Shown one piece after another: positions 7,681-45,125 of a stretch of 64,000 bases of DNA. The translations under genes and the position numbers were made by a program. The stretch covers positions 6,574,001 to 6,638,000 of the forward strand of contig OZ076409.1 in the NCBI GenBank assembly GCA_964187785.1. The letters run 5' to 3'. The stretch comes from Amphiscolops sp. MND2022. Lineage: Eukaryota. The first letter of the stretch is position 1, and each line of letters begins with the position of its first letter. The notes under the pieces are model-generated. The model did no database searches. It was not told where the DNA came from and saw only the letters and a list, made by a program, of their open reading frames with translations.

Positions 7681-7914
7681 GTATCACCTGACTCCGTTGT
7701 CTTACGAGACCCTGGACCATGCTTCTGGCTTCGCCTCGGAGCAGTGTCCAGAGGGCATAGTGGCCATCGCGTCCAACACTCTGCGGATCCTGGCTCTGGA
7801 GAAACTGGGCGCCGTGTTCAACCAGCAGGCCTCTCCTCTCAAGTACACCCCCCGCAAGTTCATCGTGCACCCTCAGTCGTCCAACATCTTCATGATCGAA
7901 GCAGACCACAACAG
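7681..7914 (+). CDS. SF3B3: SF3B3 exon D
   Basis: YHLTPLSYETLDHASGFASEQCPEGIVAI...EADHN(S); inferred donor is non-canonical GG (cag|ggatta). Confidence 0.9.
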
Positions 7915-10483
7915 GGATTATTAATACTTAGCTGGGGGTATAACAATATAACAAACAAGCCGGGAACGTCTAAAGTCGGCGCTATATCTAAGGCTCAAAA
8001 TTGTAAAAGGACTTCAAAGTGTCAAGTATTCTCTTTTACAGGACTCGAAAAACCCAAACGTTGGACCGAATTGGCGCACCGCCAAAGGGGACTCTTTGAG
8101 ATTTTTCGTCCATTCTGTCGCAAATCATCAAAAAAATGAATGGGGGCCCTTTTGGTGAGAAAAAATTGAAAAAAGTCTCACAAGGCCGGAAAAACTGAAA
8201 AGGGGGACCATTTGGGCTTTGTGAAACTCCAGTTGGTTGCAAAATAGGAAAAAAAATAAGAGGGACCATTGGGAGATTTTAAAAAAATCCGAAAAAAAAA
8301 TTTGATAGATTTTTGAACAATGTCATAGTGCCGAAAAATGTAAAAGGGGGACCCTTTGAGATTTTTTGACATCCATTGTGTTGCAAAATATTAAAAAAGT
8401 TGAAGGGGAGACCCTTTGGTGGAATCCAAAAAGGTTCAAAAAAGTCGCATAGTGCCGAAAAAAATCCGAGTGAAAAAACGAGGGGGGATCCTATGTTATC
8501 GATGTTCTGGACATCGATGTTTTTGTCGTGGACGAGGTTCTGGCGTTTCGAGTATGCTTTGGACGTCCGTAGTTCAAGTTGATGATGTTGAACAAAAAAG
8601 TGGACAGATCGCGTTGAACTGACGAAAAAAACTAGCCACTTTAAGAGTCAGGATTTTCTTCGAAAACGCCGACTAAAAAGGACCATGTGTACAATTCCCC
8701 CCTCGCCAAGCGACCGCAGGGGGGAAAATAAGACGCAAGGTTCAAATGCGATGTCGACATCGTTTGCGTTGTTCAAATTTTGGTCCAATAAAAAATTGAT
8801 GTCGACATAATCCTATCCATTACATTGACTGTCATTTAAAAGTTGCTCATTAGATTTTATCATAGAGAAATTTTACGTTGAAATAGGGGCCAATTTATGC
8901 AATTTTAGCTTGTTCCAAGCGTGAATTTCTGCTCTTTTGGACAATAATATCAAAAAATTAGGGTAATTTTTTTTGCCTGAAGTGTCAAAAGAGTTGTAGA
9001 GACAATCCTCTAACTTAGAGAATACTTGAAGTATTTACATTCATATAATGTTCTCTTATTAGTGAAATCTTTTTATTCGAGAACAAAATGTGCTTTTGTG
9101 TTGGGGGAAAATTCGCAAAAAGGTGTACCTGGTGAGAAATTGAACACATGGTCCCAAAAAAATACGACTCAGTAGTTTTTGTTTTGTTTTTTGGTTCGTT
9201 TTTTCCCCATTAAAATTTCGGATTTTCCTACTGTTAGAATTTCGTTTTTCAAGAATTTTTAAATTTCTAAAACCAAAGTTTTTCTGAAAAATGATTATGC
9301 TCACTTCCGCACTTTGTTTTTCTTGTCCAAGAGTGGCGATTGAAGCAAAAGTGTCGAATTTTGACTAGTTCAAAAACCATTTTCTCACCACTTTTTTTCA
9401 CTCAATTCCTTTGGTATTGGTCCCAAACAAAGGATAATGTTGCCTTAAGATTATCTTGAACAAAATCACTTTTGATTAAATTAAGTGGAGTAGATTTTTG
9501 TCATTTCGCTTTGTTATCAAGTAAATTGAAAAATTCGTTGACTTTTTATTTCAGCCTGCCTCATATTCAGTTCAAGGTTAATTCTATTTTAGAGATTCTC
9601 AGAGTTTAAAATCCTACAGTTTAATGCCTCCATTCCACCAACAAATTCTGGACTCATTCAAAATTCAAAATTGGGTTTTCAAGAAGTTTGACTAAAATTC
9701 AGTTACTCCTCGATAATTCTTGATGCCCAATAATGCTTCGAAGGTAATTCCATGTTAGTTCTATACCGTTTACCGGAAAAACTGAGCCTTCTGAAAAGAC
9801 AAGAAATGGGAAAAACGATATCAGCTCAAATGTCACCTCAAAATAATCAATCATTTACTGAGTTTCGGAAAAGGTTTCCAATCTGTGGCTGATAGTTTTT
9901 TAAACTCAGGTCTTCCTTTTCAATAAATAAAGCACTTTTACACTTTTAGCCCCTATTGTATCAACCAAGTTACGTTGTAACATTCGAAGGAATATGCGAT
10001 TTTGAATAATTTTCAAATTTGTGATGGAAGTTCTCAGATAAATAAATACTCAAGTAGGCGTATTGTAAACTTACGAAGCATAGACATGGTCATCATGTTT
10101 GATGGCATCCTTTCATTATTTTTAGTCGGCTTTTCCGATAGAAAAAGTGACTATAGCAATGACTTTTTAACGACCTGCGAACTGACAGATTTCGTATAAC
10201 ATTCGTATAAGTTATAGCTTAGTAACTTCTCATTGCCCCTTGGCCTATAGGTTAACTCGGGTTTCCGAAATCCGAGGTCTGAGAAGCAGCAGTACGTGGG
10301 TTCGAATCTCCCACTGTTTCCAATTGTGGAAAAGCTATTTTCGAGTTTTATGCGTATCCCTTCGTGTATTTTTGTCTCTGCAAATTTGATGAAAAATTTT
10401 CACAACAGTTACCTTTGCTTATTCAAAGAACTTGTTTTTTGGGCCGTTCCCGGTTTGTTTACCATTCGTTTTAATAATCCCCG
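7912..10483. mobile_element. hAT-like TIR-bounded unit coinciding with SF3B3 intron D-E (Introner-like)
   Basis: cagggattattaa ... ttaataatccccg (12/13 inverted match), followed by 8 nt and the cag acceptor. Confidence 0.65.
7954..8679. mobile_element. HINE family 1 copy
   Basis: aacaagccgggaacg..agtcggcgc ... acgccgactaaaaa. Confidence 0.7.
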
Positions 10484-10494
10484 AATGCCGACAG

Positions 10495-10811
10495 TTTCAC
10501 GACCCAATCCAAAAAGCAGAGGAAGCAGCAAATGGCCGAGGAAATGATCCAGTCAGCCGGAGAAAGCGAACGGGAACTGGCGTCGGAAGTTGCCGAGTCC
10601 TTCTTGCAGGAGAATTTGCCGGAAGACGTTTTCGGCTCTCCCAAGGCCGGACCCGGAATGTGGGCCAGTATTCTGAGGATTCTGAACCCCTTGAATGGAT
10701 CCACAGTGAAACACGTGGAGCTAGAACAGAATGAAGCTGCGTTTTCTATCGCGTTTGTCAAGTTCGCAAACCGACCCGGAGAACAATTTCTGCTTCTCGG
10801 CACAGCTAAAG
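10495..10811 (+). CDS. SF3B3: SF3B3 exon E
   Basis: FTTQSKKQRKQQMAEEMIQSAGE...PKAGPGMWAS...LEQNEAAFS...GTAK(G); gacag acceptor, GC donor (aag|gcagag). Confidence 0.92.
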
Positions 10812-11280
10812 GCAGAGTTGTTACGATTAAACATGAGGGTAGAATTAAAGCCGGTGGAAAATGCCGGTCGTACTCATAGCTGAGGCTTCATTGAAAAAAC
10901 TTCTATATGCGCTTTCAATCGAGGTCTACTGTGTTACTAGAGTGAATCAGTAACTTAGCAAACAGTTGCTCAGTTATTGAAAAAAAGCTTTTTTGAATTT
11001 TACTGTTTTTGCAAGTCTTCACTTTTTGCAGTTACTTTTTTGCCCGGAGCTGGAAAAAAACTATATGCACACAAATAACAACTTACCTCAGTTCGTTCAA
11101 TGTATTTTCCATGAAAAGAAAAAAATCATTGTTTTCCTGTGTGCTTGTGTTTCGTAATTTTTATTGACTCATTATTTTTGTTTCAAATGCATGTTATTTA
11201 TTTACTCTCCTAGAGGATTGGTGGGTCTCTTCTGATCACATGTAAAAAAACTTCAGATTTGTTTAATAGAAGGAAACGTT

Positions 11281-11870
11281 TTTCATTATTTCTGCTTTAG
11301 CAGGAATATTATTGAATTGAAATCTCAAAATTTCTACTTTTGTCAGTACAATTCTCCGTATGATACTGAATAATTCAGATATTTTGTTCGGCAGTGACTA
11401 TAAGCGTAAGATTAAAGTTCTCAAGCTGCCGACGACAATTCAATTCTCGTGCGATGGAACGAGCGAGTTGTAATTATGCATTCGTAAGCTGACGTCATTG
11501 AGATGAAGCGAGCGAATGTTTGTTATTGTGCTTTCGTTGCGCCGAGTTATTGAGATGAAGCGAATGAGTGTTAGTTGTACTTTCGCGGAGAGCTTCGCCT
11601 GCATTCAAATATATATTTGCTTTACTCCGAGATTTACTACTATTACTACTGAAAGACTGGATTGATTCTAGTCAGAAATTGATTCTAGAAAGAAATACTT
11701 GATGATATTTACATGTACAGATTTTTTAAACAACAGAGTTAAAGGCGGTATAAACTGGTACAGTGATTAATTGTGCGCTAAATAATGATTAAACAGGAAT
11801 GTATTGGTATTCAAGATATGATTCTATTATTAATGAAAGATTAAAGCAGAAATAGTAATGGGCCTATTTT
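11281..11870. mobile_element. HINE-like family 3 copy (diverged)
   Basis: atttctgctttagcaggaat ... ttaaagcagaaatag..ggcctatttt. Confidence 0.65.
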
Positions 11871-12149
11871 TTTAAAAAAAAACTTTTTAAAAATTGGCAC
11901 AGAACGGAAAGAAGACTGTTTTTTCAACTTTTTTTGAAAACATGAAACAAAATGGAGTGCTACTAAAACAGCCGAGAGGAAAGGTTTCCAGCAGAGCATA
12001 AATCTTAGAACTGACTTTGTTTGCTCGGTTGGTGCTTCTGTCAAAAAACAGGATTGTGGAAATGATTTTTTTGAAAATTTGACAATGTGGATAAGTTTTT
12101 TGAATATGGTTTTCATTTTGACAGAAAACGAGTACAATGATAAACTACT

Positions 12150-15100
12150 CACTGATAGCAATCTCCGTTCCCAGGGTGAACAGAGTTGTTTCTATTCAGC
12201 AATTCGTTGAGTACAATATTAGGATCTCTGTGTTGTTTTTTCCAGCACGTGTCACATTTTTTTTGTCATCGTAACCGAAATATTCTATTTCACTTTTTGA
12301 CACTCGCAGCCCCGCATTTGGGCCATATCTTGCAACAACTCATGGAACGTTCGCAGCTTGGTTCTATGAATAAAGTTAAAACTATGAGTGCATAAGTCAA
12401 AGCTGTTTTGTTTAACTTTGTTGGTGGCATAGTGTGTTGTATCTTTGCTATAATTTCAATGAACAGGAGAGAAAGTGGTCACTGTTTGTTGATTGTGTAA
12501 ACAACGTATATCGAAAGTTTGTAATCTCTGCCCCACTCAGGCATGTTTACCAAGGCTGAAGTTCATATGCCGTTTAAGGAGGTGAATCAACCATAACAAA
12601 AATCATTTTGCCGTTTTACAACCAGAACAATCAGTCCAAGGTGATTAAAAATGAAAGCTTCAAGCTACTTGACATTATTTTTTTGCTGGAATTGATCGAT
12701 GATCAAAACAAAGGATACGAGGGAAACACCACTCTACTTTCCAGAAACCAAAATCATTGTTTGAAGGTAATGAGTGCCAAGTTAACATTGCATAGCTAAC
12801 CTCATCAACTCTCTGGCACATTGGGCATTTGATTTCACCATGTATTTTTTCCCTTTCTTTTCAGCTAGAGGAGACAATTTTCATCAGATTTGGGTCCACA
12901 TAAACAATGTCCACAAGAGAGAATTCTTGAACTAATTCCAAAAGTTTTACTTTCATCAGTTTATACTCACTGATTGCTTTCTCCTTTTTTCTTCTGTGAT
13001 ATTTTTTCCAACAAATGTCACAGGACTCTTGGTTGTAATCATTGCAGAAATATTTTAATTCTTTATTGTTCGGCCATTTCTTCCAACAACTCATGGAACT
13101 TTCGCAGCTTGGTTCTACAAATAAAGTTAAAACTATGAGTGCATAAGTCAAAGCTGTTTTGTTTAACTTTGTTGGTGGCATAGTGTGTTGTATCTTTGCT
13201 ATAATTTCAATGAACAGGAGAGAAAGTGGTCACTGTTTGTTGATTGTGTAAACAACGTATATCGAAAGTTTGTAATCTCTGCCCCACTCAGGCATGTTTA
13301 CCAAGGCTGAAGTTCATATGCCGTTTAAGGAGGTGAATCAACCATAACAAAAATCATTTTGCCGTTTGACAACCAGAACAATCAGTCCAAGGTGATTAAA
13401 AATGAAAGCTTCAAGCTACTTGACATTATTTTTTTGCTGGAATTGATCGATGATCAAAACAAAGGATACGAGGGAAACACCACTCTACTTTCCAGAAACC
13501 AAAATCATTGTTTGAAGGTAATGAGTGCCAAGTTAACATTGCATAGCTAACCTCATCAACTCTCTGGCACATTGGGCATTTGATTTCACCATGTATTTTT
13601 TCCCTTTCTTTTCAGCTAGAGGAGACAATTTTCATCAGATTTGGGTCCACATAAACAATGTCCACAAGAGAGAATTCTTGAACTAGTTCCAAAAGTTTTA
13701 CTTTCATCAGTTTATACTCACTGATTGCTTTCTCCTTTTTTCTTCTGTGATATTTTTTCCAACAAATGTCACAGGACTCTTGGTTGTGATCATTGCAGAA
13801 ATATTTTAATTCTTTATTGTTCGGCCATTTCTTCCAACAACTCATGGAACTTTCGCAGCTTGGTTCTACAAATAAAGTTAAAACTATGAGTGCATAAGTC
13901 AAAGCTGTTTTGTTTAACTTTGTTGGTGGCATAGTGTGTTGTATCTTTGCTATAATTTCAATGAACAGGAGAGAAAGTGGTCACTGTTTGTTGATTGTGT
14001 AAACAACGTATATCGAAAGTTTGTAATCTCTGCCCCACTCAGGCATGTTTACCAAGGCTGAAGTTCATATGCCGTTTAAGGAGGTGAATCAACCATAACA
14101 AAAATCATTTTGCCGTTTTACAACCAGAACAATCAGTCCAAGGTGATTAAAAATGAAAGCTTCAAGCTACTTGACATTATTTTTTTGCTGGAATTGATCG
14201 ATGATCAAAACAAAGGATACGAGGGAAACACCACTCTACTTTCCAGAAACCAAAATCATTGTTTGAAGGTAATGAGTGCCAAGTTAACATTGCATAGCTA
14301 ACCTCATCAACTCTCTGGCACATTGGGCATTTGATTTCACCATGTATTTTTTCCCTTTCTTTTCAGCTAGAGGAGACAATTTTCATCAGATTTGGGTCCA
14401 CATAAACAATGTCCACAAGAGAGAATTCTTGAACTAGTTCCAAAAGTTTTACTTTCATCAGTTTATACTCACTGATTGCTTTCTCCTTTTTTCTTCTGTG
14501 ATATTTTTTCCAACAAATGTCACAGGACTCTTGGTTGTAATCATTGCAGAAATATTTTAATTCTTTATTGTTCGGCCATTTCTTCCAACAACTCATGGAA
14601 CTTTCGCAGCTTGGTTCTACAAATAAAGTTAAAACTATGAGTGCATAAGTCAAAGCTGTTTTGTTTAACTTTGTTGTTGGCATAGTGTGTTGTATCTTTG
14701 CTATAATTTCAATGAACAGGAGAGAAAGTGGTCACTGTTTGTTGATTGTGTAAACAACGTATATCGAAAGTTTGTAATCTCTGCCCCACTCAGGCATGTT
14801 AACCAAGGCTGAAGTTCATATACCGTTTAAGGAGGCGAATCAACCGTAACAACAATCATTTTGCCGTTTTACAACCAAAACAATCAGTCCAAGGTCATTA
14901 AAAATGAAAGCTTCAAGCTACTTGACATTATTTTCTTGCTGTAATTGATCGATGATCGAAACCAAAGGATACGAGGGAAACACCACTCTACTTTCGAGAA
15001 ACCAAAATCATTAATGTTTGAAGGTAATGAGTGCCAAGTTAACATTGCATAGCTAACCTCATCAACTCTCTGGCACATTGGGCATTTGATTTCACCATGT

Positions 15101-18100
15101 ATTTTTCCCTTTCTTTTCAGCTAGAGGAGACAATTTTCATCAGATTTGGGTCCACATAAACAATGTCCACAAGAGAGAATTCTTGAACTAATTCCAAAAG
15201 TTTTACTTTCATCAGTTTATACTCACTGATTGCTTTCTCCTTTTTTCTTCTGTGATATTTTTTCCAACAAATGTCACAGGACTCTTGGTTGTAATCATTG
15301 CAGAAATATTTTAATTCTTTATTGTTCGGCCATTTCTTCCAACAACTCATGGAACTTTCGCAGCTTGGTTCTACAAATAAAGTTAAAACTATGAGTGCAT
15401 AAGTCAAAGCTGTTTTGTTTAACTTTGTTGGTGGCATAGTGTGTTGTATCTTTGCTATAATTTCAATGAACAGGAGAGAAAGTGGTCACTGTTTGTTGAT
15501 TGTGTAAACAACGTATATCGAAAGTTTGTAATCTCTGCCCCACTCAGGCATGTTTACCAAGGCTGAAGTTCATATGCCGTTTAAGGAGGTGAATCAACCA
15601 TAACAAAAATCATTTTGCCGTTTTACAACCAGAACAATCAGTCCAAGGTGATTAAAAATGAAAGCTTCAAGCTACTTGACATTATTTTTTTGCTGGAATT
15701 GATCGATGATCAAAACAAAGGATACGAGGGAAACACCACTCTACTTTCCAGAAACCAAAATCATTGTTTGAAGGTAATGAGTGCCAAGTTAACATTGCAT
15801 AGCTAACCTCATCAACTCTCTGGCACATTGGGCATTTGATTTCACCATGTATTTTTTCCCTTTCTTTTCAGCTAGAGGAGACAATTTTCATCAGATTTGG
15901 GTCCACATAAACAATGTCCACAAGAGAGAATTCTTGAACTAATTCCAAAAGTTTTACTTTCATCAGTTTATACTCACTGATTGCTTTCTCCTTTTTTTCT
16001 TCTGTGATATTTTTTCCAACAAATGTCACAGGACTCTTGGTTGTAATCATTGCAGAAATATTTTAATTCTTTATTGTTCGGCCATTTCTTCCAACAACTC
16101 ATGGAACTTTCGCAGCTTGGTTCTACAAATAAAGTTAAAACTATGAGTGCATAAGTCAAAGCTGTTTTGTTTAACTTTGTTGGTGGCATAGTGTGTTGTA
16201 TCTTTGCTATAATTTCAATGAACAGGAGAGAAAGTGGTCACTGTTTGTTGATTGTGTAAACAACGTATATCGAAAGTTTGTAATCTCTGCCCCACTCAGG
16301 CATGTTTACCAAGGCTGAAGTTCATATGCCGTTTAAGGAGGCGAATCAACCATAACAAAAATCATTTTGCCGTTTTACAACCAGAACAATCAGTCCAAGG
16401 TGATTAAAAATGAAAGCTTCAAGCTACTTGACATTATTTTTTTGCTGGAATTGATCGATGATCAAAACAAAGGATACGAGGGAAACACCACTCTACTTTC
16501 CAGAAACCAAAATCATTGTTTGAAGGTAATGAGTGCCAAGTTAACATTGCATAGCTAACCTCATCAACTCTCTGGCACATTGGGCATTTGATTTCACCAT
16601 GTATTTTTTCCCTTTCTTTTCAGCTAGAGGAGACAATTTTCATCAGATTTGGGTCCACATAAACAATGTCCACAAGAGAGAATTCTTGAACTAATTCCAA
16701 AAGTTTTACTTTCATCAGTTTATACTCACTGATTGCTTTCTCCTTTTTTTCTTCTGTGATATTTTTTCCAACAAATGTCACAGGACTCTTGGTTGTAATC
16801 ATTGCAGAAATATTTTAATTCTTTATTGTTCGGCCATTTCTTCCAACAACTCATGGAACTTTCGCAGCTTGGTTCTACAAATAAAGTTAAAACTATGAGT
16901 GTATAAGTCAAAGCTGTTTTGTTCAACTTTGTTGGTGGCATAGTGTGTTGTATCTTTGCTATAATTTCAATGAACAGGAGAGAAAGTGGTCACTGTTTGT
17001 TGATTGTGTAAACAACGTATATCGAAAGTTTGTAATCTCTGCCCCACTCAGGCATGTTAACCAAGGCTGAAGTTCATATACCGTTTAAGGAGGCGAATCA
17101 ACCATAACAAAAATCATTTTGCCGTTTTACAACCAAAACAATCAGTCCAAGGTGATTAAAAATGAAAGCTTCAAGCTACTTGACATTATTTTCTTGCTGT
17201 AATTGATCGATGATCGAAACCAAAGGATACGAGGGAAACACCACTCTACTTTCGAGAAACCAAAATCATTAATGTTTGAAGGTAATGAGTGCCAAGTTAA
17301 CATTGCATAGCTAACCTCATCAACTCTCTGGCACATTGGGCATTTGATTTCACCAATTTTTGATTTCACCAAGGTATTTTTCCCTTTCTTTTCAGCTAGA
17401 GGAGACAATTTTCATCAGATTTGGGTCCACACAAACAATATCCACGAGAGAATTCTTGAACAAATTCAAAAAGTTTTACTTTCATCAGTTTATACTCACT
17501 GATAGTTTTCTCCGTTCCCAGGGTGAACAAAGTTGTTCCCACTTGGCAATTTCGATGAGTTCGATTTCATGATCTCTATGCTGATTTTTTTTCCAACACA
17601 TGTCACAGAACTCTTGATTGTCATCACACCAGAAGTATTTCAGCTCAATATTGTTTGGCCTAATCTTCCATACAACTCATGGAACTTTCGCCGCTTGGAT
17701 ACACTCAGCAACTTCGATTCGTTCGATTTTATGATCTCTGTGATGATTTTTCCAACAAATTTCACAGAACTCTTGGTTGTAATCATTGCAGAAATATTTT
17801 AGTTCACTATTGTTCGGCCATTTCTTCCAACAACTCATGGAACTTCGCAGCTTGGTTCTACAATTAAAGTTGAATGCATAAGTCAAAGCTGTTTTGTTTA
17901 ACTTTGTTGGTGGCTTTGTGTTTTGTATTTTTGCTATACTTTCAATGAACAGGAGAGAAAGTGGTCACTGTTTGTTGATTGTGTAAACAACGTATATCGA
18001 AAGTTTATGTAATCTCTGCCCCACTCAGGCATGTTAACCAAGGCTGAAGTTCATGTACCGTTTAAGGGGGCGAATCAACCATAACAAAAATCATTTTGCC

Positions 18101-21100
18101 GTTTTACAACCAAAACAATCAGTCCAAGGTGATTAAAAATGAAAGCTTCAAGCTACTTGGCTTTTTTCTTGCTGGAATTGATCGATGATCTAAACAAAGG
18201 ATACGAGGGAAACACCACTCTACTTTCCAGAAACCAAAATCATCAATGTTTGAAGGTAATGAGTGCTAAGTTATTATTGCATAGCTAACCTCATCAAGTC
18301 TCTGGCACATTGGGCATTTGATTTCACCAGGTATTTTTCCCTTTCTTTTCAGCTAGAGAACACAACTTTCATCAGATTTGGGTCCACATAAACAATGTCC
18401 ACAAGAGAGAATTTTCGAACAAATTCAAAAAGTTTTACTTTCATCAGTTTATACTCACTGATAGCTTTCTCCGTTCCCAGGGTGAACAAAGTTGTTCCCA
18501 CTTAGCAATTTCGATGAGTTCGATTTCATGATCTCTATGCTGATTTTTCCAACACGTGTCACAGAACTCTTGATTGTCATCACAGCAGAAGTATTTCAGC
18601 TCAATATTGTTTGGCCTAATCTTCCATACAACTCATGGAACTTTCGCCGCTTGGATACACTCAGCAACTTTGATTCGTTCGATTTTTTGATCCGTGATGA
18701 TTTTTCCAACAAATTTCACAGAACTCTTGGTTGTAATCATTGCAGAAATATTTTAGTTCACTATTGTTCGGCCATTTCTTCCAACAACTCATGGAACTTT
18801 CGCAGCTTGGTTCTACAAATAAAGTTAAAATTATGAGTGCATAAGTCAAAGCTGTTTTGCTTAACTTTGTTGGTGGCATAGTGTTTCGTATCTTTGCTAT
18901 ACTTTCAATGAACAGGAGAGAGTGGTCACCGTTCGTGGATTGTTTAAGCAACGTATATCGAAAGTTTATGTAATCTCTGCCCCACTCAGGCATGTTTACC
19001 CAGGCTGAAGTTCATATGCCGTTTAAGGAGGCGAATCAACCATAACAAAAATCATTTTGCCGTTTTACAACCAAAACAATCAGTCCAGGGTGATTAAAAA
19101 TGAATTCAAGCTACTTGGCATTATTTTCTTGCTGGAATTGATCGATGATCGAAACAAAGGATACGAGGGAAACACCACTCTACTTTCCAGAAAGCAAAAT
19201 CATCAATGTTTGAAGGTAATGAGTGCCAAGTTAACATTGCATAGCTAACCTCATCAAGTCTCTGGCACATTGGGCATTTGATTTCCCCAGGTATTTTTTC
19301 CCTTTCTTTTCAGCTGGAGGAGACAATTTTCATCAGATTTGGGTCCACATAAACAATTTCCACAAGAGAGAATTTTCGAACAAATTCAAAAAGTTTTACT
19401 TTCATCAGTTTATACTCACTGATATTTTTCTCCGTTCCCAAGATGAACAAAGTTGTTCCCACTTAGCAATTTCGATGAGTTCGCTTTCATGATCTCTATG
19501 CTGATTTTTCCAACACATGGCACAGAACTCTTGATTGTCATCACAGCAGAAGTATTTTAGCTCAATTTCGTTTGGCCATATCTTCCATACAACTCATGGA
19601 ACTTTCGCAGCTTGGATACACTCAGCAACTTCGATTCGTTCGATTTTATGATCTATCTCTGTGATAATTTTTCCAACAAATGTCACAGAACTTTTGGTTG
19701 TAATCATTGCAGAAATTTTTTAGTTCACTATTGTTCGGCCATTTCTTCCATACAACTCATGGAACTTTCGCAGCTTGGTTCTACAAATATAGTTAAAATT
19801 ATGAGTGCATAAGTCAAAGCTGCTTTGCTTAACTTTGTTGGTGGCATAGTGTTTCGTATCTTTGCTATACTTTCAATGAACGGGAGAGAGTGGTCACCGT
19901 TTGTTGATTGTTTAAACAACGTATATCGAAAGTTTATGTAATCTCTGCCCCACTCAGGCATGTTTACCAAGGCTGAAGTTCATATGCCGTTTGAGGCGAA
20001 TCAACTATAACAAAAATCATTTTGCTGTTTTACAACCAAAACAATCAGTCCAGGGTGATTAAAAATGAAAGCTTCAAGCTACTTGGCATTATTTTCTTGC
20101 TGGAATTGATCGATGATCGAAACAAAGGATACGAGGGAAACACCACTCTATTTTCCAGAAAGCAAAATCATCAATGTTTGAAGGTAATGAGTGCCAAGTT
20201 AACATTGCATAGCTAACCTCATCAAGTCTCTGGCACATTAGGCATTTGATTTCACCAGGTATTTTCTCCCTTTCTTTTCAGCTGGAGGAGACAATTTCCA
20301 TCAGATTTGGGTCCACATAAACAATTTCCACAAGAGAGAATTTTCGAACAAATTCAAAAAGTTTTACTTTCATCAGTTTATACTCACTGATATTTTTCTC
20401 CGTTCCCAGGGTGAACAAAGTAGTTCCCACTTAGCAATTTCGATGAGTTCGATTTCATGATCTCTATGCTGATTTTTCCAACACATGTCACAGAACTCTT
20501 GATTGCCATCACAGCAGAAGTATTTTAGCTCAATTTCGTTTGGCCATATCTTCCATACAACTCATGGAACTTTCGCAGCATGGATACACTCAGCAACTTC
20601 GATTCGTTCGATTTTATGATCTCTGTGATGATTTTTCCAACACATGTCACAGAACTCTTGATTGTCATCAAAACAGAAGTATTTCAGCTCAATATTGTTT
20701 TGCCTAATCTTCCATACAACTCATGGAACTTTCACAGCTTGGATACACTCAGCAACTTCGATTCGTTCGATTTTATGATCTATCTCTGTGATGATTTTTC
20801 CAACAAATGTCACAGAACTCTTGGTTGTAATCATTGCAGAAATATTTTAGTTCACTATTCTTCGGCCATTTCTTCCAACAACTCATGGAACTTTCGCAGC
20901 TTGGTTCTACAAATAAAGTTAAAATGTGAGTGCATAAGTCAAAGCTGTTTTGCTTAACTTTGTTGGTGGCATAGTGTTTTGTATCTTGGCTATACTTTCA
21001 ATGAACAGGAGAGAGTGGTCACTGTTTGTTGATTGTGTAAATAACGTATATCGAAAGTTTATGTAATCTCTGCCCCACTCAGGCATGTTTACCAAGGCTG

Positions 21101-21800
21101 AAGTTCATATGCCGTTTAAGGAGGTGAATCAACCATAACAAAAATCATTTTGCCGTTTTACAACCAAAACAATCAGTCCAATGTGATTGAAAATGAAAGC
21201 TTCAAGAAACTTGACATTATTTTCTTGCTGGCATTGATCGATGATCAAAACAAAGGATACGAGGGAAACACCACTCTACTTTCCAGAAACCAAAATCATC
21301 AATGTTTGAAGGTAATGACTGCCAAGTTAACATTGCATAGCTAACCTCATGAACTCTCTGGCACATTGGGCATTTGATTTCACCAGGTGTTTTTTCCCTT
21401 TCTTTTCAGCTGGAGGAGACAACTTTCATCAGATTTAGGTCCACACAAACAATGTCCACAAGGGAGAATTCTTGAACAAATTTAAAAAGTTTCACTTTCG
21501 TCAGTTTATAATCACTGATAGCATTCTCAGTTCCCAGGGTGAACACATTTGCTTCCACTTAGCAATTTCGAAGAATTTGATTCTATGATCTCTGTGCTGG
21601 TTTTTCCAACGAATGTCACAGAACTCTTGATTGTCATCATAGCAGAAGTATTTTAGCTCACTATTGAGACGCCTGCAGAGACGCGTTTTGGCCATTTCTT
21701 CCAGCATCTACTCATATCCTTAAGATGTAACTTGCCCAGCTTGGATCTACGAATAAAACTAAAACTATGAATGCATAAATCAAAGTTGTTTAATTTGTAG
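12150..21800 (-). repeat. Tandem array of about 11-12 units (about 751-754 bp proximally, about 960-1130 bp distally) derived from a decayed coding region
   Basis: Near-identical ORFs recur at 12608, 13359, 14110, 15615, 16367, 19057, 20022 and 21150; one further copy at ~23460-24200. Confidence 0.95.
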
Positions 21801-22649
21801 GTGGTACACTTTATTCACTTTTTGTTCCTATGTTTTCATTAGAGAATAGGGAAAATGGAGACTATTTGGCAATTGTGTAAAAATCGTAAATTGAAAATTC
21901 GTGTCTGCTCTACTCCACACTGGCAAGTCATGTTTGATTGCCGGTGAAGAGGTGGCCTAACAATAAAAAAATCGTTTTCTACACAGTTGAAAATTCGTGT
22001 ATCCTCTACCCCACACAGGCAAGTTATGTTTGATTGCCGTTGAAGAGGTGGCATAACGATAACAAAAAATCGTTTTCTACACTCAGTTGAATAGCTATGA
22101 CAAAAAAATGTTGCACGTAAATTACTGTACGAAAAGACGTCAAAGTAAATACTGATCGAAACGTTTCTGATCGCTGCATTGACGTGACCTCAAGAGAAAA
22201 GACAAGATAGACTGATAAGTGTTCAATTTCAGTTTTAAGCGTGCTGAAGGAGCAAGTGAGATTAGTAAACACATTTCAGCAATATAAACTGCAGTGGTAG
22301 ACGTTAAGATTGAGAACTAGGAAAAGAAACAGTGACACATCAATAACTTCTTTCAGAGGCACATTATTTTACTGATATTTTGTTGAACAGTTTGTGAACC
22401 ACTGCAGACTGTAGGTAACAATAAATTACATTTTGATGTGTTTTTGGTACCTTCTTCGTATTGTTATTTGTAAGTAACAATGAGTGAAACTAACCAGTTG
22501 AAAGAACGGAAAACGCTTAGATCATGAGAAGCACCAGGAGAGCAATTGAAATCAAAAAATGATGAAAACAGCAGTAAAAATGGCAACTTGGCGGTTGGGT
22601 GATCCGATTAACATTGGCCGTTTCAAGTGATTTTGACCTTAACAGTTAC

Positions 22650-24752
22650 CCTTAACTAGTAGACTGATGAAACAGCCTTTTGCATTGGGAATAGGGATGT
22701 GGACTATGCGCGGGTTGTTCAATTGGCACAGCCTTGGGGAATCTCAGTGCCACTACAGCGTTTGGCAGAGGTTGGATAATTGATTCTGTAGAAATGACAT
22801 GATATTCGTGCACTTCGACGAAACTTTCGTTCTCCAATTTTGACGGCTTGAACCATCCGATTACTCGAAATCCTTTACGGCAGTTTGACGTACTTGACAC
22901 AGAAGGGTTCTGAATCCCATCCACAAATGCTCCATCAGTTCTAAACTCAACCAAATTGAACGCTGCTTCGTTTTGTGGCCTCACACTCACAATAATGTTG
23001 TGGTTCACAGAGAGTGTTGTGGTTCACAGTAATATTTTTGGCGAACTTCACTGAAACGAAAGACTTCTGGTGAGAAGTTCTTAAGAAAGTTGAGGACACT
23101 GAACCAAAGCTCGCAGATCCCTTTCCTTCAATCCACTCTTCAACAAACACACAACGTTTCTTTAACTGTTTGTCCATCACAGAAATTTCCGCTGCACAAG
23201 TAAACAGTAGAAATGATGTTTTTTAAAGTAGATATGATGTATTTTAATTGCCGTTCATCAGTAACAAAGTGGAAACTTTTATTATCGGTTTCGTTTTCGA
23301 TGCCGAACGCTTGCATTTCGTTGAACGATAAATTCATTTGAGAATTCGGTACTGGGATAAGTGGTTCAGTAGTAGATATCAAAAGGTTTTGGGAGTCAAT
23401 CATGGTCTCTTTAATTCGGAGTTCAATTAGTTCCACTATTTTTCCCGGATAAGTTTCGGGGTGATATCTTCATATGCCGTTTAAGGAGGCGAATCAACCA
23501 TAACAAAAAATCATTTTGCCGTGTTACAACCAAAACAATCAGTCCAAGGTGATTAAAAATGAAAGCTTCAAGAAACCTGACATTATCTTGCTGGAATTGA
23601 TCGATGATCAAAACAAAGGATACGAGGGAAACACCATTCTACTTTCCAGAAACCAAAATCGTCAATGTTTGAAGGTAATGAGCGCCAGGTTAACATTGCA
23701 TAGCTAACCTCATGAACTCTCGGGCACATTGGGCATTTGATTTCACCAGGTATTTTTCCTTCTTTTCAGCTAGAGAATAAAATTTCTTAGTTTTAGGGTC
23801 CACACAAACAATGTCCACAAGGGAGAATTCTTGAGAACAAAATTTTAAAAGTTTCACTTTCATCAGTTTTTACTCACTGATAGCATTCTCAGTTCCCAAG
23901 GTTAACACAGTTGCTCCCACTTAGCAATTTCGAAGTTCGAATTTATCATCTCTGTGCTGGTTTTTCCAACAATTGTCACAGAATTCTTGATTGTCATCAT
24001 AGCAGAAGTATTTTAGCTCACTATTGAGACGCCTGCAGAGACGCATTTCGGCCGTATCTTCCAACATCTACTCGTATCCTTAAGATGTAACTTGCCCAGC
24101 TTGGATCTACGAAAAAACTAAAAATTTGAATGCCTAAATCAAAGCTGTTTAATTTGTAGGTGGTACATATTACTCGCTTTTTGTTCCTATATTTTCATTA
24201 GTGAGTAGGGAAAATGGAGACTATTTGGCAATTGTGTAAAAATCGTAAATTGAAACTTCGTGTATCCTCTACCCCACACAGGCAAGTTATGTTTGATTGC
24301 CGTTGAAGAGGTGGCATAACGATAACAAAAAATCGTTTTCTACACACAGTTGAAAATTCGTGTATCCTCTACCCCACACAGGCAAGTTATGTTACTACGG
24401 TTCAGTAGTAGATATCAGGTTTTGGGAGTCAATCATGGTCTCTTTAATTCGGGGTTCCATTAGTTCCACTATTTTTCCCGGATAAGTTTCGGGGTGATAT
24501 CTTGTTACGATCCTACTCTTTCTCGCTAGAGGTAATGAGCGCCACTACCTTGTTGCTTCTTGGGTCTCCAAAAAGAAAGAACCGGTCGTCGTTTATTTGG
24601 TGGAGCTTGTTTTTAGACAGCATACTCTGACGACCGGACGTTGCTTGTTTGAACTTCAGTGGCTCAACTGCGTGTTTCCCATGTGAATTTACTAAAAACA
24701 ACCTTTTATCTTCGCAGTCGGATGCAAAATCGGAGTTTATTTTTAAATTCAT
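22650..24752 (-). pseudogene. Decayed Cys-rich ORF of a mobile element; likely source of the tandem array
   Basis: Chain of frameshifted minus-strand ORF fragments (24752, 23611, 23436, 23180, 23008) that includes one array unit. Confidence 0.4.
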
Positions 24753-25208
24753 CTGCCAAGGTCTCTAGCAGAAACAGGATTGAGGGAGCTTGCGAATGCG
24801 GTGTTCTTTTTAGGTGAGAATCTATTTTTGTTCGGGTTAGTTCCTAAACACAGAAATGTTGGAAAAAGTAATAACAGAAAAGAAAAATATTTTCTTGTAA
24901 AATAATAATTTGACACCTCTAGAAGAATACAAAAGTGTGGCGTTGTAACAAAAAGAGGAGAGATTTGATATTGTCAAAGAAGGGAGTGAGGTTTGAGGTG
25001 ACATGGAGATACGAAAAACGAATCACAGATAAAAAAAGTCGCAATCTTTGTTGAAGGGAATATCGAAAAATTACTGTAATCTCCGCTGATGTTGGAACTA
25101 AATAACTTTTGAAGTAGAGTTCGTTTCGTTAATTTCCGGCGACAATTATAGTTAATATTTAGGGGGAAATGGAGAGGTATGTGTTGTGGAAATGATGGAT
25201 GATTATCT

Positions 25209-25595
25209 AACAAGACGCCCGCTAAGCACCGGGATATTTTCCTCCCTTTTCGCCTTCATCACTTGAGCCATAGCTATTTTGGGAGAAGAATAGGATCTAA
25301 ATGATAAGATCTAAAATTTATTGATTTTAGATCTTATTCCCTTTAGATCTTAATCCCATTTTTACTTTAGATCTTTTTCCATCAGATTTTATACTCGTCC
25401 TGAAATTTTAGATGTTGTTCGCTTTGGATCTTATTTCCTTTTTTGACTTTAGTTCTTATTCCTCCCTCCTACTAAAATAGTCCCTCCTACGGTGGTGAGT
25501 CAAGTGATGGAGCGTGGAGATTTGGCAGAATTTGGAAAAAAACGCAACACAGATGATGAGTTTCCTCCCCAATGAAAATGTGGGTCGGAAAATAA
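25209..25595. mobile_element. HINE-like family 2 copy
   Basis: aacaagacgcccgctaagcaccggg ... gggtcggaaaataa, with internal agatct microrepeats. Confidence 0.6.
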
Positions 25596-28336: not shown

Positions 28337-28367
28337 AATCGTAACAACTCTGAACCTAATCGTCAAG

Positions 28368-28615
28368 GTCTGAAACTGAACCCCCCATCGATCACGGTGG
28401 GCTATGTGTACGCGTACCGGGTGCCGGACTCGGGAGACAGCTTCGAGTTCATCCACAGGACTGAGATGGAGGATGTGGCTCTGGCGGTGTGCGAGTTCAA
28501 GGGGAGGGTGTTGATCGGGGTGGGCAAGTGGCTGCGACTGTACGACATGGGACGGAAGAAGTTGCTGAAGAAGTGCGAGAACAAACATCTCACTAACAAG
28601 ATCATCACCATCAAG
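28368..28615 (+). CDS. SF3B3: SF3B3 exon F
   Basis: GLKLNPPSITVGYVYAY...GRVLIGVGKWLRLYDMGRKKLLKKCENKHLTNKIITIK; tcaag acceptor, gttgtt donor. Confidence 0.92.
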
Positions 28616-29558
28616 GTTGTTGAATGAATAGAACAAAAAAGAAAGAATAAAACAAGAAAGAACATGAATGAAACAAGGAAAACAAGCCGGGAACGGCCAA
28701 AGTTGGCGCTATATCGAAGGCTCAAAATTGTAAAAGGGGGACCATTTGGGCTTTGTGAAACTCCAGTTAGTTGCAAAAGATGAAAAAAATTAAAGGGGGA
28801 CCCTTGGGAGATTTTTAAAAATTTCCGAAAAAAATTTAAAATGAGATTTTTGAAGTGTCACAGTGCCGAAAAATGTAAAAGGGGGCCTTTGGGATTTTTC
28901 AACATCCATTCTCGGGCAAAATTGAAGGTGGGACCCTTTGGTGCAGTCCAAAAATTTTCGAAAAAAGTCTCATAGTGCCGAAAAAAAATCCAAGTTAAAA
29001 ACACCAAGATAATAAAAGTTGGATCCTGAGTATGTTTTCGAGGTTTTGGACGTTGGTTTTGTTTTGGACGAGGTTCTGACGTTTCCAGTATGTTTTGGAC
29101 ATCCGTAGTTCAAGTTGAACAAATGAACGAAAAGTGGACTTTACGCGTATAAAAAAACTACCCGCTGTAAGAGTCGGGCACTTTTCTTCAAAAGCGCCGA
29201 CTAAAAAACACTGTTTGTTCAGACACTTCTTTCCAGTTGTTTATGGTCTAGTTTCTGACTGTTCAATTTGTTTGGTACTTTTTGTTTACAAACCAGAACG
29301 CCTCGTGTGAAAGATGATATCTGGAAAATTTCAATGAAGTGAATGAATTCCATGCTTTTTATTCCTTTGTCAAATTTTTGTACAATAAAATATTTGGCAA
29401 CAAACGAAAACCGTTGTGCATAACACATTGTTTTCCACGGTAGTTTTCCCAAGAGGAAAAAAGCATTAAAATAATTTTAAAAAAAACAGTATATTCCGTT
29501 CAAAAACCTTTTAAAAGCATTTTTCGTGAAACAACAAACTGTCTAATTAACAACCTTG
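28612..29558. mobile_element. hAT-like Introner forming SF3B3 intron F-G
   Basis: TIR caaggttgtt/aacaaccttg; perfect 8-bp TSD atcaccat at 28604-28611 and 29559-29566. Confidence 0.85.
28681..29208. mobile_element. HINE family 1 copy (nested)
   Basis: aacaagccgggaacggcc hairpin ... gcgccgactaaaaaa. Confidence 0.7.
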
Positions 29559-29570
29559 ATCACCATGCAG

Positions 29571-29758
29571 ACTGTCGGGTACCGGATCTTTGTCACCGAT
29601 GTGCAGGACAGTGTGACCTTTCTGCGCTACAAGCCCATAGAGAACCAGATGATCATTTTCGCCGATGACCCCAACCAGAGATTTGTGATGTCATCCTGTG
29701 TCGTGGATTACAACACAATCGCAGTGTCCGACAAATTTGGAACCATTTCCATCATCAG
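29571..29758 (+). CDS. SF3B3: SF3B3 exon G
   Basis: TVGYRIFVTDVQDS...ENQMIIFADD...DKFGTISII(R); cag acceptor, gtaata donor. Confidence 0.93.
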
Positions 29759-32762: not shown

Positions 32763-32815
32763 TTTCTTCGCCGTGTTGTAAGAAAACCACCGCGTTTTTA
32801 ATTGCCTTCCAGGAG

Positions 32816-43210: not shown

Positions 43211-43750
43211 TTTTTAGTCGGCGCATTTTAGTAGAAAATGTGCCCGACTATTACAGTGGGTAGTTTTTTTTGGACACGAAAAGTCCACTTTTTGTTCATT
43301 TGTTCAACAACCTCCACAACTTCAAACCTCAACAACTCCAACCTCAGAAGCGTCCAAAACGAAAAGAAAAAACAAAACAGACGTCCACAACCTCGAAATC
43401 ACACTAAGGATCCCCACTTTTTTTCGGAACTATGCGACTTTTTGAAACTTTTTGGATTGAAATTTTTTCACCAAAGGGTCCCCCCTTCAATTTTTTTTGA
43501 TGTTTTGCAACACAATGGATGTCAAAAAATCGCAAAGGGTCCCCCCTTTTACATTTTTCGGCACTGTGACACTGTTCAAAAATCTCATTAAAAAAATTTT
43601 TCGGAAGTTTTTTCATGTCTCCAAAGGGTCCCCCCTTCAATTTTTTTTTAATTTTTTGCAACCAGCTGGAGTTTCACAAAGCCCGAAGGGTCCCTCTTTT
43701 AAATTTTGAGCCTTAGATATGGCGCCGACTTTGGCCGTTCCCGGCTTGTT
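43211..43750. mobile_element. HINE family 1 copy
   Basis: tttttagtcggcgc ... gcgccgactttggccgttcccggcttgtt. Confidence 0.7.
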
Positions 43751-44447
43751 ACACTTGCGATAAGCAAGTGTTATGGGAAAGTGCGGGTGCTTTTTTTTCC
43801 GCGCGACAACTCTCTGATTTCACGCAGCAACTCGCACATTTCACGCGTTCGTGGTCTAGTGGTAAGATGCTTGCTTTTCAACCCAGAGGTTTCGTGTTCG
43901 AACCCGTGGTTATGCGCTAATTTTTTTACAAGTATTCCGAAGCAGAAGGTTTGACATTTTTCGGCACTATGAGACTTTTCGGCTTTGTGAGACTTTTTTT
44001 TCGGCTTTGTGAGACTTTTTTTTCGAAATTTTTTAATGTCCCCAAAGCGTCCTCCTTTCAATTTTTTGATATCTTGCAACAGAACGAATGTTATAAAATC
44101 CTAAAGTGTCCCTTTATCACATTTTTCGGCACTATGCGACTTAGCGGAAACTTCAAAAAAATCGAAAAAATTCGGAAAATTTTTTCTCAATTTTTAGTTT
44201 TAAAAGACAAGAATGGGTTTTTTGCTGTTTTCAGTTGGGGAAGAATGGTTTTCGAGGCTTACGCGTATCCCTTCGGGTATTTTTTGGCGCTGTAAAATTG
44301 ATGAAATTTTAATCTCCTTTTACCCTTGGTTTTCCGTATGATATTGCTTATTTGGTTTTCTTCAAAAGTTCGCAAGTGTTTGCGAAGCACGGCTTCGCCT
44401 CTGTGTCTAAATTTGGCTGTATGAAAAGTCACCGTTTTTAATTGCAG

Positions 44448-44690
44448 CGCAACTTTGACGAGCTGGAACGAAACCGGGACAAAGTGATGCAATACAAACT
44501 GGAGAGAGCGGCGAAAGACGTCGAAACGAACAAACGGGAGTTCGAAACGTGCAATTCCAATTGTTCCAGGGACCTCAAGTTTCTGTACGACGTTCGCAGT
44601 GACTACATCGCCCCCTCGTTCGAGACCCTGGTACATTCCCAGAAAGCCGTGTTCGACTCCATGGAAGAGTGCTACTCTGAGATCTTGCAG
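44448..44690 (+). CDS. BIN3: BIN3-like exon 4
   Basis: KLERA..REFETCN...LYDVRSDYIAPSFETLVHSQ resembles BIN3 FYGSRLDYFQPSFESLIRAQ; GC donor. Confidence 0.82.
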
Positions 44691-45116
44691 GCTATTTTTT
44701 GTTTTTCCCCCCACCACCAAATTTTTTGGAAGTACGTTTCCTTAAATTTCAGACGAGCCTAATTGAAAGTAAAGTCTTCTTTCAATGAACAAGTGTCTTC
44801 TTTCACAGGAATTTAATGTCTATTGGAATAGTTTTTTGTTTGAACAAAACATTTTTCACGCATTTTAACTATAATTACGTTCTTATTCACTGATTTTTGC
44901 ACTCAAAACAGGAAGTTGTTGATTTCTTTTCCAAGAATGCGTGAATTCATTAGGAAAAATAATGTGAACAAAGTTTGTATCTCAATTCCAAACTGTCACA
45001 CTGTGGAAATGAATGAAAATTGAAGGTTTCTGTTTTGTATTCAAGTCTTTTTTAAATAAAAATTTTCACTAATTTTTCAATAAAAAAATGGTGGTGGGGG
45101 AAAACAGAAAAGAGCC
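44690..45116. mobile_element. MITE/Introner forming BIN3 intron 4
   Basis: Imperfect ~29-bp TIR starting ggct; perfect 8-bp TSD atcttgca at 44682-44689 and 45117-45124. Confidence 0.88.
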
Positions 45117-45125
45117 ATCTTGCAG

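Follow-up and report, generated by a model that had tools for sequence, protein, structure and literature searches.

In the genome of the acoel worm Amphiscolops sp. MND2022, MITEs have probably integrated into the coding exons of single-copy genes within one acoel lineage and persist there as spliced introns. This reading comes from a stretch of 64,000 nucleotides (the window), which contains SF3B3 and a BIN3-like gene. At the level of genomic sequence, a transposon insertion into a coding exon is demonstrated for both SF3B3 intron F-G and BIN3 intron 4, since each combines a multi-copy family with the same ends and 8-bp TSDs, a length equal to element (TE) plus TSD, an intact empty-site frame, and uninterrupted ORFs in relatives. 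The original prediction had attributed four introns to transposons; it stands for these two, whereas SF3B3 introns D-E and E-F are plausible but unproven cases, with no clean duplication, a unique D-E end, and five loci related to E-F. The Introner-like system is real, and none was reported for the acoel lineage in the literature searched. The origin of new spliceosomal introns is a long-standing question for which clear recent animal cases are very few; here, one gene shows element, duplication, and empty site, sister species lack the intron, and the same family occurs in other housekeeping genes.

SF3B3 lies on the + strand, and its RSE1/DDB1/CPSF_A domains were found. Its exons were placed by tblastn with the orthologues P0002/P0130. 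Exons B-I, once joined, give a single 603-codon frame in which the sole stop is terminal, and this model aligns without gaps to ORF P0125 of a close relative (487/495 identical, ~98%). The gene is single-copy in the genome, with all 5 of the 5 P0001 matches falling within the window. The features around introns F-G and BIN3 intron 4 are as follows.

28368..28615, + strand: SF3B3 exon F, by orthologue mapping; the MITE begins with the last four exon bases, CAAG (28612-28615)
28604..28611, + strand: exonic 5' TSD copy ATCACCAT; 3' copy at 29559-29566
28612..29558, + strand: MITE of the 'CAAGGTTGTT...AACAACCTTG' family, 947 bp
28616..29570, + strand: SF3B3 intron F-G, 955 nt = TE (947) + TSD (8)
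29571..29758, + strand: SF3B3 exon G, by orthologue mapping with an open joined frame
44463-44690 and 45126-45221, + strand: BIN3-like BAR exons flanking intron 4
44682..44689, + strand: exonic 5' TSD copy ATCTTGCA, encoding ..I L Q; 3' copy at 45117-45124
44690..45116, + strand: MITE of the 'GGCTCTTTTCTG...CAGAAAAGAGCC' family, 427 bp, ~30-bp TIR
44691..45125, + strand: BIN3-like intron 4, 435 nt = TE (427) + TSD (8); GC-AG register, CAG|GCTATT ... TCTTGCAG|AG

The F-G MITE consists of an element proper of ~420 bp and an abundant nested repeat of 527 bp (28681-29207). Its donor, AAG|GTTGTT, sits within the TIR, the acceptor is a host GCAG located 4 nt past the 3' TSD copy, and the empty site gives the continuous frame NKIIT-MQTVGYR. 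At least 326 candidates of this family are present in the genome. Among 39 scored copies, 20 terminate within one base of 29558, and 13 of the 21 fetched copies have both termini and a TSD match of 5-8/8 (at least 7/8 in 8 of these). The sampled copies are best BLAST hits only; 9 of the 13 evaluable copies fall outside long ORFs, and 2 of the 13, apart from the window copy, lie in Pfam-supported coding sequence. One of them (L090) interrupts the ATP-citrate synthase domain PF24948 between profile positions 113 and 116, and the other (L012) lies within an ORF of 556 codons that encodes a SPACA9 domain; the coding status of L011 is without Pfam support. Frame preservation was evaluated with the TIR donor CAAG|GT and the first downstream AG, excluding the ambiguous copy L092. 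All four exonic copies keep the frame (net 0, 0, +3, and -3), compared with 0 of 18 orientation cases from nine non-coding control copies (Fisher p about 1.4e-4, hand-computed).

For BIN3 intron 4, the predicted spliced product equals the empty site, EILQSVDP, and the relative's ORF P0121 reads an uninterrupted EILQSVDPL at this position. The family comprises at least 4530 candidates in the genome; of 39 scored copies, 31 extend from query positions 8-11 to 436-438 (equivalent to 44690-45116). Four of nine fetched copies have perfect 8-bp TSDs, with two more at 7/8. No second exonic copy was confirmed among these nine, L026 being merely suggestive, and most copies lie outside long ORFs. Because most sampled copies are located in this way, the F-G and BIN3 families resemble ordinary MITEs whose ends are splice-competent, not dedicated Introners, which in the strict sense form families whose members are mostly gene introns. 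Other Introner properties were recovered: a multi-copy family for F-G and BIN3 intron 4 (weakly for E-F and not for D-E), borders corresponding to element ends plus TSD (955 = 947 + 8; 435 = 427 + 8), one family in unrelated genes (F-G in SF3B3, ATP-citrate synthase, and the SPACA9-domain ORF), and absence of the intron at the orthologous site of relatives, where canonical introns are also absent.

We propose that non-autonomous cut-and-paste DNA transposons with 8-bp TSDs, several with hAT-like CA[AG]NG ends, would land in coding exons and persist because the spliceosome excises them as introns. In the F-G family, the TIR would bring a ready 5' splice site (CAAG|GTTGTT) in either orientation, the first host AG just past the duplicated target would serve as the 3' splice site, and exonic copies would survive only where this pair preserves the frame. 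The first G of the BIN3 element would complete a CAG|GC donor, while the duplicated target and the next host G would form the acceptor CAG, exactly restoring the mRNA. The sequences fit the earlier proposal that the TE end supplies or completes the donor and a TSD or host CAG supplies the acceptor, and for the F-G family the frame test backs it. The hAT terminus motif is YARNG, to which the acoel termini CAAGG, CAGAG, and CAGGG conform and the GGCTC of the BIN3-intron family does not. The 8-bp TSDs of the F-G and BIN3-intron families also resemble those of hAT-superfamily MITEs.

The four focal introns are absent from Symsagittifera roscoffensis, Convolutriloba macropyga, and the 99%-identical relative. 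Residues 7-497 of P0002 correspond to S. roscoffensis RefSeq residues 717-1207, and residues 2-485 of P0133 to C. macropyga residues 724-1207, each in one uninterrupted ORF; P0125, from the close relative (99% identical), shows no interruption from exon D through the stop. These are ORFs on genomic DNA, P0002 and P0133 coming from a prokaryote-style caller. Mapping intron positions onto orthologues (P0002, P0133, P0125, and P0121) favoured the original prediction, the focal introns being absent from all these uninterrupted ORFs. Four canonical SF3B3 introns (A-B, B-C, G-H, and H-I), GT-AG with good pyrimidine tracts, are likewise missing from the sister species; of the window's 8 SF3B3 introns, Symsagittifera and Convolutriloba lack 7 and the 99%-identical relative lacks five. 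The absence of the focal introns could thus partly reflect intron loss there, and it is conceivable, if unlikely, that they are old introns lost in relatives (e.g., by cDNA recombination), which transposons merely entered. The missing canonical introns suit this account, as does the lack of TE ends at the splice sites of G-H and H-I, the two searched. Several adjacent introns can be lost in a single event, a known process, and intron C-D, which harbours a BIN3-intron-family MITE nested at ~7062-7449, shows that MITEs enter existing introns. Against it, F-G and BIN3 intron 4 are exactly TE plus TSD, leaving no space for a pre-existing intron, and the D-E spacing is also exactly TE+8. Independent losses would be needed in the 99%-identical relative and on the Symsagittifera/Convolutriloba branch, with C-D, common to the window species and its sister species, spared between two lost blocks. 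The features around introns D-E and E-F are as follows.

6999..7680, + strand: SF3B3 intron C-D, GC-AG, without terminal inverted repeat; control
7681..7914, + strand: SF3B3 exon D, by tblastn with an open joined frame; 3' end ...GAC CAC AAC AG
7912-10483, + strand: putative hAT-like element in D-E, 13-bp TIR CAGGGATTATTAA / TTAATAATCCCCG, 12/13 match
7915..10494, + strand: SF3B3 intron D-E, 2580 nt, GG-AG register, equivalent to AG-AC 7913-10492
10495..10811, + strand: SF3B3 exon E, by orthologue mapping with an open joined frame
10812..28367, + strand: SF3B3 intron E-F, 17,556 nt, GC-AG register, perfect 16-bp TIR CAGAGTTGTTACGATT

The longest exact inverted repeat at the intron ends was compared with a null of 2000 random window pairs. 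Inverted repeats had been claimed to flank both splice sites of four introns, and this was confirmed (each P<=0.0015): 11 bp in D-E (GGGATTATTAA, 7914-7924 / 10471-10481, P~0.0015), 16 bp in E-F (10813-10828 / 28337-28352, 0/2000 in the null), 12 bp in F-G (28610-28621 / 29549-29560, 0/2000), and 12 bp within the ~30-bp gapped TIR of BIN3 intron 4 (P~0.0005). No terminal inverted repeat was detected by the same test in A-B, B-C, C-D, G-H, or H-I, where the longest measured 5-7 bp (P 0.23-0.96). The TIRs are unrelated to one another, as expected from the several families predicted, and the perfect 8-bp direct repeats described for two introns are present in F-G and BIN3 intron 4. A third intron was said to keep the 8-nt spacing with a decayed copy. 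In D-E the spacing holds (2572 + 8 = 2580, the full intron), but the octamers at 7904-7911 (5') and 10484-10491 (3') agree at only 3/8 positions.

Intron D-E is non-canonical in all registers (GG-AG, AG-AC, or GG-CA), its terminal 28-mer has no further copy in the genome, and its abundant nested repeats begin at 7946-7954 and finish by 10440. Nested repeats fill the interior of E-F together with a ~750-bp tandem array, and no transposase was found among the ORFs of this intron. Its 16-mer occurs exactly 3 times in 1.07 Gb, twice in E-F itself; a related 32-nt terminus occurs at 5 loci (0 in the control), and the last 366 nt at the 3' end are found nowhere else in the genome. No duplication adjoins the E-F TIR; an octamer pair with a 5/8 match, CGTCAAGG (28361-28368) and GCTAAAGG (10805-10812), adjoins exon F, 8 extra bases from the TIR (TE+16). 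With decayed duplications and little or no family support, a transposon origin of D-E and E-F is likely but unproven on these sequences. Both most probably arose earlier by the same route, from two further hAT-like families, and were later enlarged by nested repeats. A somewhat unlikely alternative is that their terminal repeats arose by chance or as selected RNA pairing elements for weak splice sites. The unique D-E ends and the lack of a clean duplication in either intron are compatible with it, as are the strong predicted duplexes joining the intron ends (z -2.6 and -4.6 for D-E and E-F) and E-F arms that are perfect across 16 bp though the intron is old and heavily invaded. Chance is nevertheless ruled out by the P values (<=0.0015), and transposon ends better account for repeats that open with hAT-like CAGGG / CAGAG right at the exon edge, for the E-F-related terminus at five other loci, and for the TE+8 spacing of D-E.

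The donors GG (D-E), GC (E-F), GT (F-G), and GC (BIN3 intron 4) are readings forced by the frame and the uninterrupted orthologous ORFs, and splicing would occur at exactly these sites, including the GC and GG donors. The GC/GG donors and weak pyrimidine tracts of the focal introns are poor by the usual consensus, and the GC donor of C-D is also visible in the ORF read-through of C. macropyga. A spliceosome tolerant of GC/GG donors would be implied. The best-scoring U1 snRNA copy has a canonical 5' end; pairing of the inverted repeats may help juxtapose the splice sites. The poor donors and tracts could instead mean that the insertions are unspliced, the assembled alleles being disrupted or the gene in decay, which we regard as very improbable. 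SF3B3 is single-copy, with every exon open and 98% identical to the relative, and the exons are intact although the insertions are old, with 77-87% identity to related copies and, in one case, a nested insertion. ORF P0127, exon E running into intron E-F, is identical to the window, and the read-through occurs on two other ENA contigs (P0126, P0127). The frame-preserving exonic copies (4/4) also argue for splicing.

Introner elements were reportedly described by Huff et al. in 2016 in Micromonas and Aureococcus. According to Gozashti et al. 2022 (PMC9860276), Introners occur in Micromonas, Aureococcus, dinoflagellates, and others, and among 3,325 genomes just two groups of animals have them. 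They share with the acoel introns a non-autonomous DNA transposon nature, TIRs and TSDs, exon insertion, and one carried splice site with the other co-opted from the duplication or host; like the F-G family, a single family occurs in unrelated genes. The acoel elements differ in that the majority of sampled copies fall outside long ORFs, which suggests general MITEs more than intron-specialised elements, the TSD is 8 bp, 3 of 4 donors are read as GC or GG, and the host is a bilaterian.

MITE-derived non-canonical introns are described in Fritillaria borealis, a tunicate (Henriet et al. 2019 via PMC11282704; Soo et al. 2026, PMC13326754). Non-canonical introns, chiefly AG/AC and AG/AT ones bordered by YAY triplets, make up ~95% of the total in this species, which also has a duplicated U2AF. 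These sources likewise describe an animal with lineage-specific introns, border TIRs and TSDs, non-GT donors, and splicing proposed to neutralise transposon insertions. Relative to those descriptions, the acoel differs in coexisting canonical GT-AG introns, AG acceptors, and the canonical 5' end of the best-scoring U1. The Fritillaria-type YAY signature is absent from the focal introns, of which only D-E is readable as AG-AC, with flanks AAC and GAC. Euglenid nonconventional introns, as outlined in PMC11282704 and PMC3935182, have pairing ends, variable non-GT-AG borders, and a suggested MITE origin, and their removal is attributed to a different mechanism whose nature is unknown. As in the acoel, the ends can pair and bring the borders close; in contrast to that outline, acoel borders are compatible with an ordinary spliceosome (MAG|G... 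CAG|).

More tentatively, this acoel lineage may be in the midst of a burst of intron gain, in which the inverted repeats of several MITE families give the donor and pair across the intron, bringing weak sites together, so that an ordinary spliceosome with canonical U1 accepts GC and even GG. If so, it would parallel, in a bilaterian, the Fritillaria strategy of splicing out the transposon, observed here soon after its onset, while sister species still retain empty sites. Since assemblies exist for S. roscoffensis and C. macropyga, the rate at which exon insertions become introns, the sufficient splice signals, GC/GG tolerance, and the role of inverted-repeat pairing are directly testable. For the annotation of acoel genomes, gene finders limited to GT-AG will split genes at such introns.

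The finding of transposon-made introns is real: two of the four focal introns, SF3B3 F-G and BIN3 intron 4, are demonstrated as such at the level of predicted splice sites, and two more, SF3B3 D-E and E-F, are likely. The window corresponds to G000:C1:6574001-6638000 of the 1.07-Gb assembly, and a Pfam scan of 144 window ORFs located the following pieces of the host genes.

3.5, 7.5, 10.5, 28.3 and 32.8 kb, + strand: RSE1/DDB1/CPSF_A pieces
44.4 kb: BAR piece

SF3B3 exons B to I were placed by orthologue mapping and, when joined at the inferred borders, gave one 603-codon frame with a terminal stop only. This joined sequence was identical to P0125, the SF3B3 of a close relative, at 487 of 495 ungapped positions, and showed 88–89% identity to the RefSeq SF3B3 proteins of Symsagittifera roscoffensis and Convolutriloba macropyga. 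These identities make the source organism an acoel, related closely to both species but distinct from either. A tunicate or larvacean identity, suggested by the initial protein matches, was rejected because the tree and the members of the protein cluster indicated Acoela. SF3B3 is single-copy, since all five genome matches of protein P0001 fall in the window. For BIN3, a word-index search identified no longer relatives, while an exhaustive search returned four matches, among which a relative's BIN3-like protein (P0121) alone was useful; no extra BAR exons were detected by Pfam scan among 58 + strand ORFs at 37.3-45.2 kb. ORFs of other window genes, with BRCT, JmjC and SET domains, were observed at 54367-55014 (+), 55931-56551 (-) and 62757-63722 (+).

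For each intron, the longest exact inverted repeat shared by its opposite ends was set against a null of 2000 pairs of pieces drawn at random from the window.

Longest exact inverted repeat shared by the intron ends, with its occurrence in the null
SF3B3 D-E, 7915-10494, + strand: 11 bp, P ~0.0015
SF3B3 E-F, 10812-28367, + strand: 16 bp, 0 of 2000 in the null
SF3B3 F-G, 28616-29570, + strand: 12 bp, 0 of 2000 in the null
BIN3 intron 4, 44691-45125, + strand: 12 bp, within a ~30-bp gapped TIR, P ~0.0005
SF3B3 A-B, B-C, C-D, G-H and H-I, + strand: 5–7 bp, P 0.23–0.96

The inverted repeats claimed by the original prediction for the ends of the four focal introns were thus recovered (P <= ~0.0015 each against random pairs), both perfect 8-bp direct repeats were found in their places, and the TIR families of the introns differ from one another, in line with the several families proposed. 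Predicted end-to-end RNA duplexes gave z values of -2.6 to -9.1 in the focal introns, with B-C reaching -2.3. A strict window scan, requiring a perfect 8-bp direct repeat together with a TIR of 10 bp or more, yielded one further candidate element and none in the mirrored control. This 1455-bp candidate, with AGAAATTT flanks and TGACGAAAGT ends, is located at 39847-41317 in the BIN3 region and overlaps weak BIN3-like tblastn matches at 40833-40931.

The right part of the F-G intron was found at 326 or more genomic places, and 20 of the 39 scored family copies stop at most one base from window position 29558, the end of ...AACAACCTTG. Alignment of copies defined the opposite end of this MITE family as CAAGGTTGTTAAGG..., with flanking 8-bp duplications. 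Both ends were present in 13 of the 21 fetched copies, together with duplications that agree at 5–8 of 8 positions; two copies had poor duplications, and in six no 5' end could be recognised in the fetched stretch, in several cases owing to another repeat nested at that point. The window copy is as follows.

28612-29558: F-G family MITE flanked on each side by ATCACCAT, with an abundant 527-bp repeat nested inside

Once the element and one copy of the duplication are taken out, the sequence reads ...AAG ATC ATC ACC ATG CAG ACT..., an unbroken frame that is colinear with the orthologues. In the GT-AG reading, the donor AAG|GTTGTT lies inside the TIR and the acceptor is the host GCAG, four bases beyond the duplication, so that the 955 nt excised are exactly the element plus the duplication. 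This anatomy demonstrates F-G, as a predicted intron, to be a MITE inserted in a coding exon.

The abundant repeat (at least 8990 candidates) occurs at 28681-29207, 7950-8220 and about 10440-10460, nested in the F-G MITE and as two inward-facing copies in D-E; several further F-G family copies carry it nested within their A-rich left arm. The repeat looks SINE-like, because it starts with AAACAAGCCGGGAACGG and ends with GCGCCGACTAAAAA.

BIN3 intron 4 is represented by a family of at least 4530 members, in which 31 of 39 scored copies span exactly 44690-45116. Nine copies were fetched; perfect 8-bp duplications were present in four and 7/8 matches in two more. The reading CAG|GCTATT ... TCTTGCAG|AG excises 435 nt (427+8) and restores EILQSVDP, which is also read by the relative's ORF P0121, and inspection revealed no in-frame GT-AG alternative yielding the conserved downstream frame. 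With its splice sites predicted in this way, BIN3 intron 4 is demonstrated to be a MITE insertion from a family distinct from that of F-G.

The presence of these introns in relatives was assessed from ENA proteins clustered with the window SF3B3, each of which is one ORF predicted by a prokaryote-style gene finder. P0127, for instance, is window exon E running on letter for letter into the E-F intron, and P0134 to P0136 carry tails derived from introns. Residues 7-497 of P0002 correspond to S. roscoffensis RefSeq residues 717-1207, and residues 2-485 of P0133 to C. macropyga residues 724-1207, in each case without a gap or a mismatch. A single exon thus contains the last ~490 codons in both species. 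Another exon, ending at the C-D donor, is represented by residues 569-717 of P0131 and P0134. P0125 (~99% identical to the window) begins in C-D intron-like sequence, which shows that it is no retrocopy, and continues uninterrupted to the stop. Since the orthologous ORFs are uninterrupted, D-E, E-F, F-G, G-H and H-I are missing from three relatives (S. roscoffensis, C. macropyga and P0125); A-B and B-C are missing from S. roscoffensis and C. macropyga, C-D is common to the window and the relatives, and BIN3 intron 4 is missing from the genome of P0121. The focal introns are therefore not shared with these relatives, the outcome that a transposon origin had been expected to give. Absence alone does not separate gain from loss, because the following canonical GT-AG SF3B3 introns are absent there too.

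407-3493, + strand: A-B
3694-6858, + strand: B-C
29759-31888, + strand: G-H
32014-32812, + strand: H-I

The ends of G-H and H-I were searched and no transposon termini were found at their splice sites. It is the combination of transposon and target-site duplication (TSD) that separates gain from loss for F-G and BIN3 intron 4. Within G-H, a repeat at 31540-31675 has genomic copies that are 96–99% identical at 39 of 39 full-length scored places; judged by sequence, its family is very young and probably active.

The F-G family also interrupts other genes, as judged from 13 evaluable copies other than the window copy. At L090 (G000:C7:71190033-71191378), a 418-bp copy lies in an ATP-citrate synthase coding exon and splits the ATP-grasp domain between profile positions 113 and 116, with TSD CCATGAAC / TCATGAAT followed by host TCAG. 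The geometry is identical in the window and at L090: the element's CAAG takes the place of the host NCAG located four bases beyond the duplication. An antisense copy at L012 (G000:C1:6809736-6813071, on the window's contig at a distance of about 200 kb) lies in a 556-codon SPACA9-domain ORF, where the TIR donor and first AG would add one codon, and the copy at L011 falls in an ORF of 206 codons that has no Pfam support. The assumption that a long stop-free span across the empty site is rare was ruled out, with at least 150 codons found at 19% of random window sites. At least 60 codons on both sides were present at 11 of 104 control sites. As long ORFs are common at control sites, we relied on Pfam support and a frame test, which paired the TIR donor after CAAG with the first AG beyond the element in exonic versus non-coding copies (L092 excluded as ambiguous). 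All 4 exonic copies kept the frame (net 0, 0, +3, -3). Of the 18 orientation cases that nine non-coding copies provided, none kept it: 7 had an out-of-frame AG and 11 no AG within 12 nt. This outcome is what survival by splicing would predict. The proposed Introner system thus holds in part: the family shows putative Introner-like behaviour in other genes, but most copies lie outside ORFs and would therefore be general MITEs with splice-competent ends.

Introners are described in 175 of 3,325 genomes, with two animal groups only, in Gozashti et al. 2022 (PMC9860276), and MITE-derived non-canonical introns of Fritillaria in a review (PMC11282704) and in Soo et al. 2026 (PMC13326754). Acoel-related terms were absent from Gozashti et al. 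2025 (PMC12130899), and the literature searched, supplements aside, yielded no description of acoel introns of this kind. The introns described here, with predicted splice sites, would place a known kind of process in a new lineage.

Non-GT donors were read from the sequence at three of eight window SF3B3 introns (C-D GC, D-E GG, E-F GC). C-D (6999-7680) has the GC donor CAG|GCTATAAC. The C. macropyga ORF P0134 reads past QSR into L..., implying a C-D intron start of GCT, and the S. roscoffensis ORF stops directly after QSR at the C-D donor (GT-type start). From the window donors and the P0134 read-through, GC donors seem to be tolerated in the clade. Inspection of U1 had also been suggested; 21 U1 loci passed the cut-off, and the best-scoring one starts with the canonical 5' end, ATACTTACCTGG. 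Many of these loci cluster on contig C12 (G000:C12:22.3-25.2 Mb), and a BIN3 family MITE copy is nested in C-D at about 7062-7449.

With moderate confidence, introns D-E and E-F are read as products of older insertion events that involved two additional hAT-like families. E-F (17.5 kb) carries a perfect 16-bp inverted repeat, CAGAGTTGTTACGATT, beginning one base past the exon edge; this 16-mer has three genomic occurrences only, two of them in E-F. L078 and L079, two other genomic loci, have ~40 nt of the E-F terminus in common, a degenerate 32-nt terminus pattern was found at 5 places versus 0 in the control, and the 3' end is otherwise unique in the genome. No duplication adjoins the E-F inverted repeat; an octamer matching at 5 of 8 positions follows after another 8 nt. 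For D-E, a possible reading is CAGGGATTATTAA ... TTAATAATCCCCG (12/13), with element plus 8 equal to the intron length of 2580; the D-E 3' octamer matches at 3 of 8 positions, and the terminal 28-mer of D-E is unique in the genome. Younger repeats fill both introns, and none reach the splice sites.

When one mismatch was allowed, the E-F 16-mer matched mostly an unrelated clustered repeat, CAGAGTTGTTACGAAT, and these matches were rejected. ORF 26098-26400 (-), without a Pfam match, contains ...YVGQTSDLRRRL..., which we take to resemble the GIY-YIG nuclease motif, and may be a Penelope-like retroelement remnant nested in E-F. A tandem array of ~750-bp period at 12500-17000 within E-F contains repeated minus-strand ORFs with weak B-box zinc-finger matches, and 159-bp tandem repeats were observed at 17546-17855 and 20428-20904.
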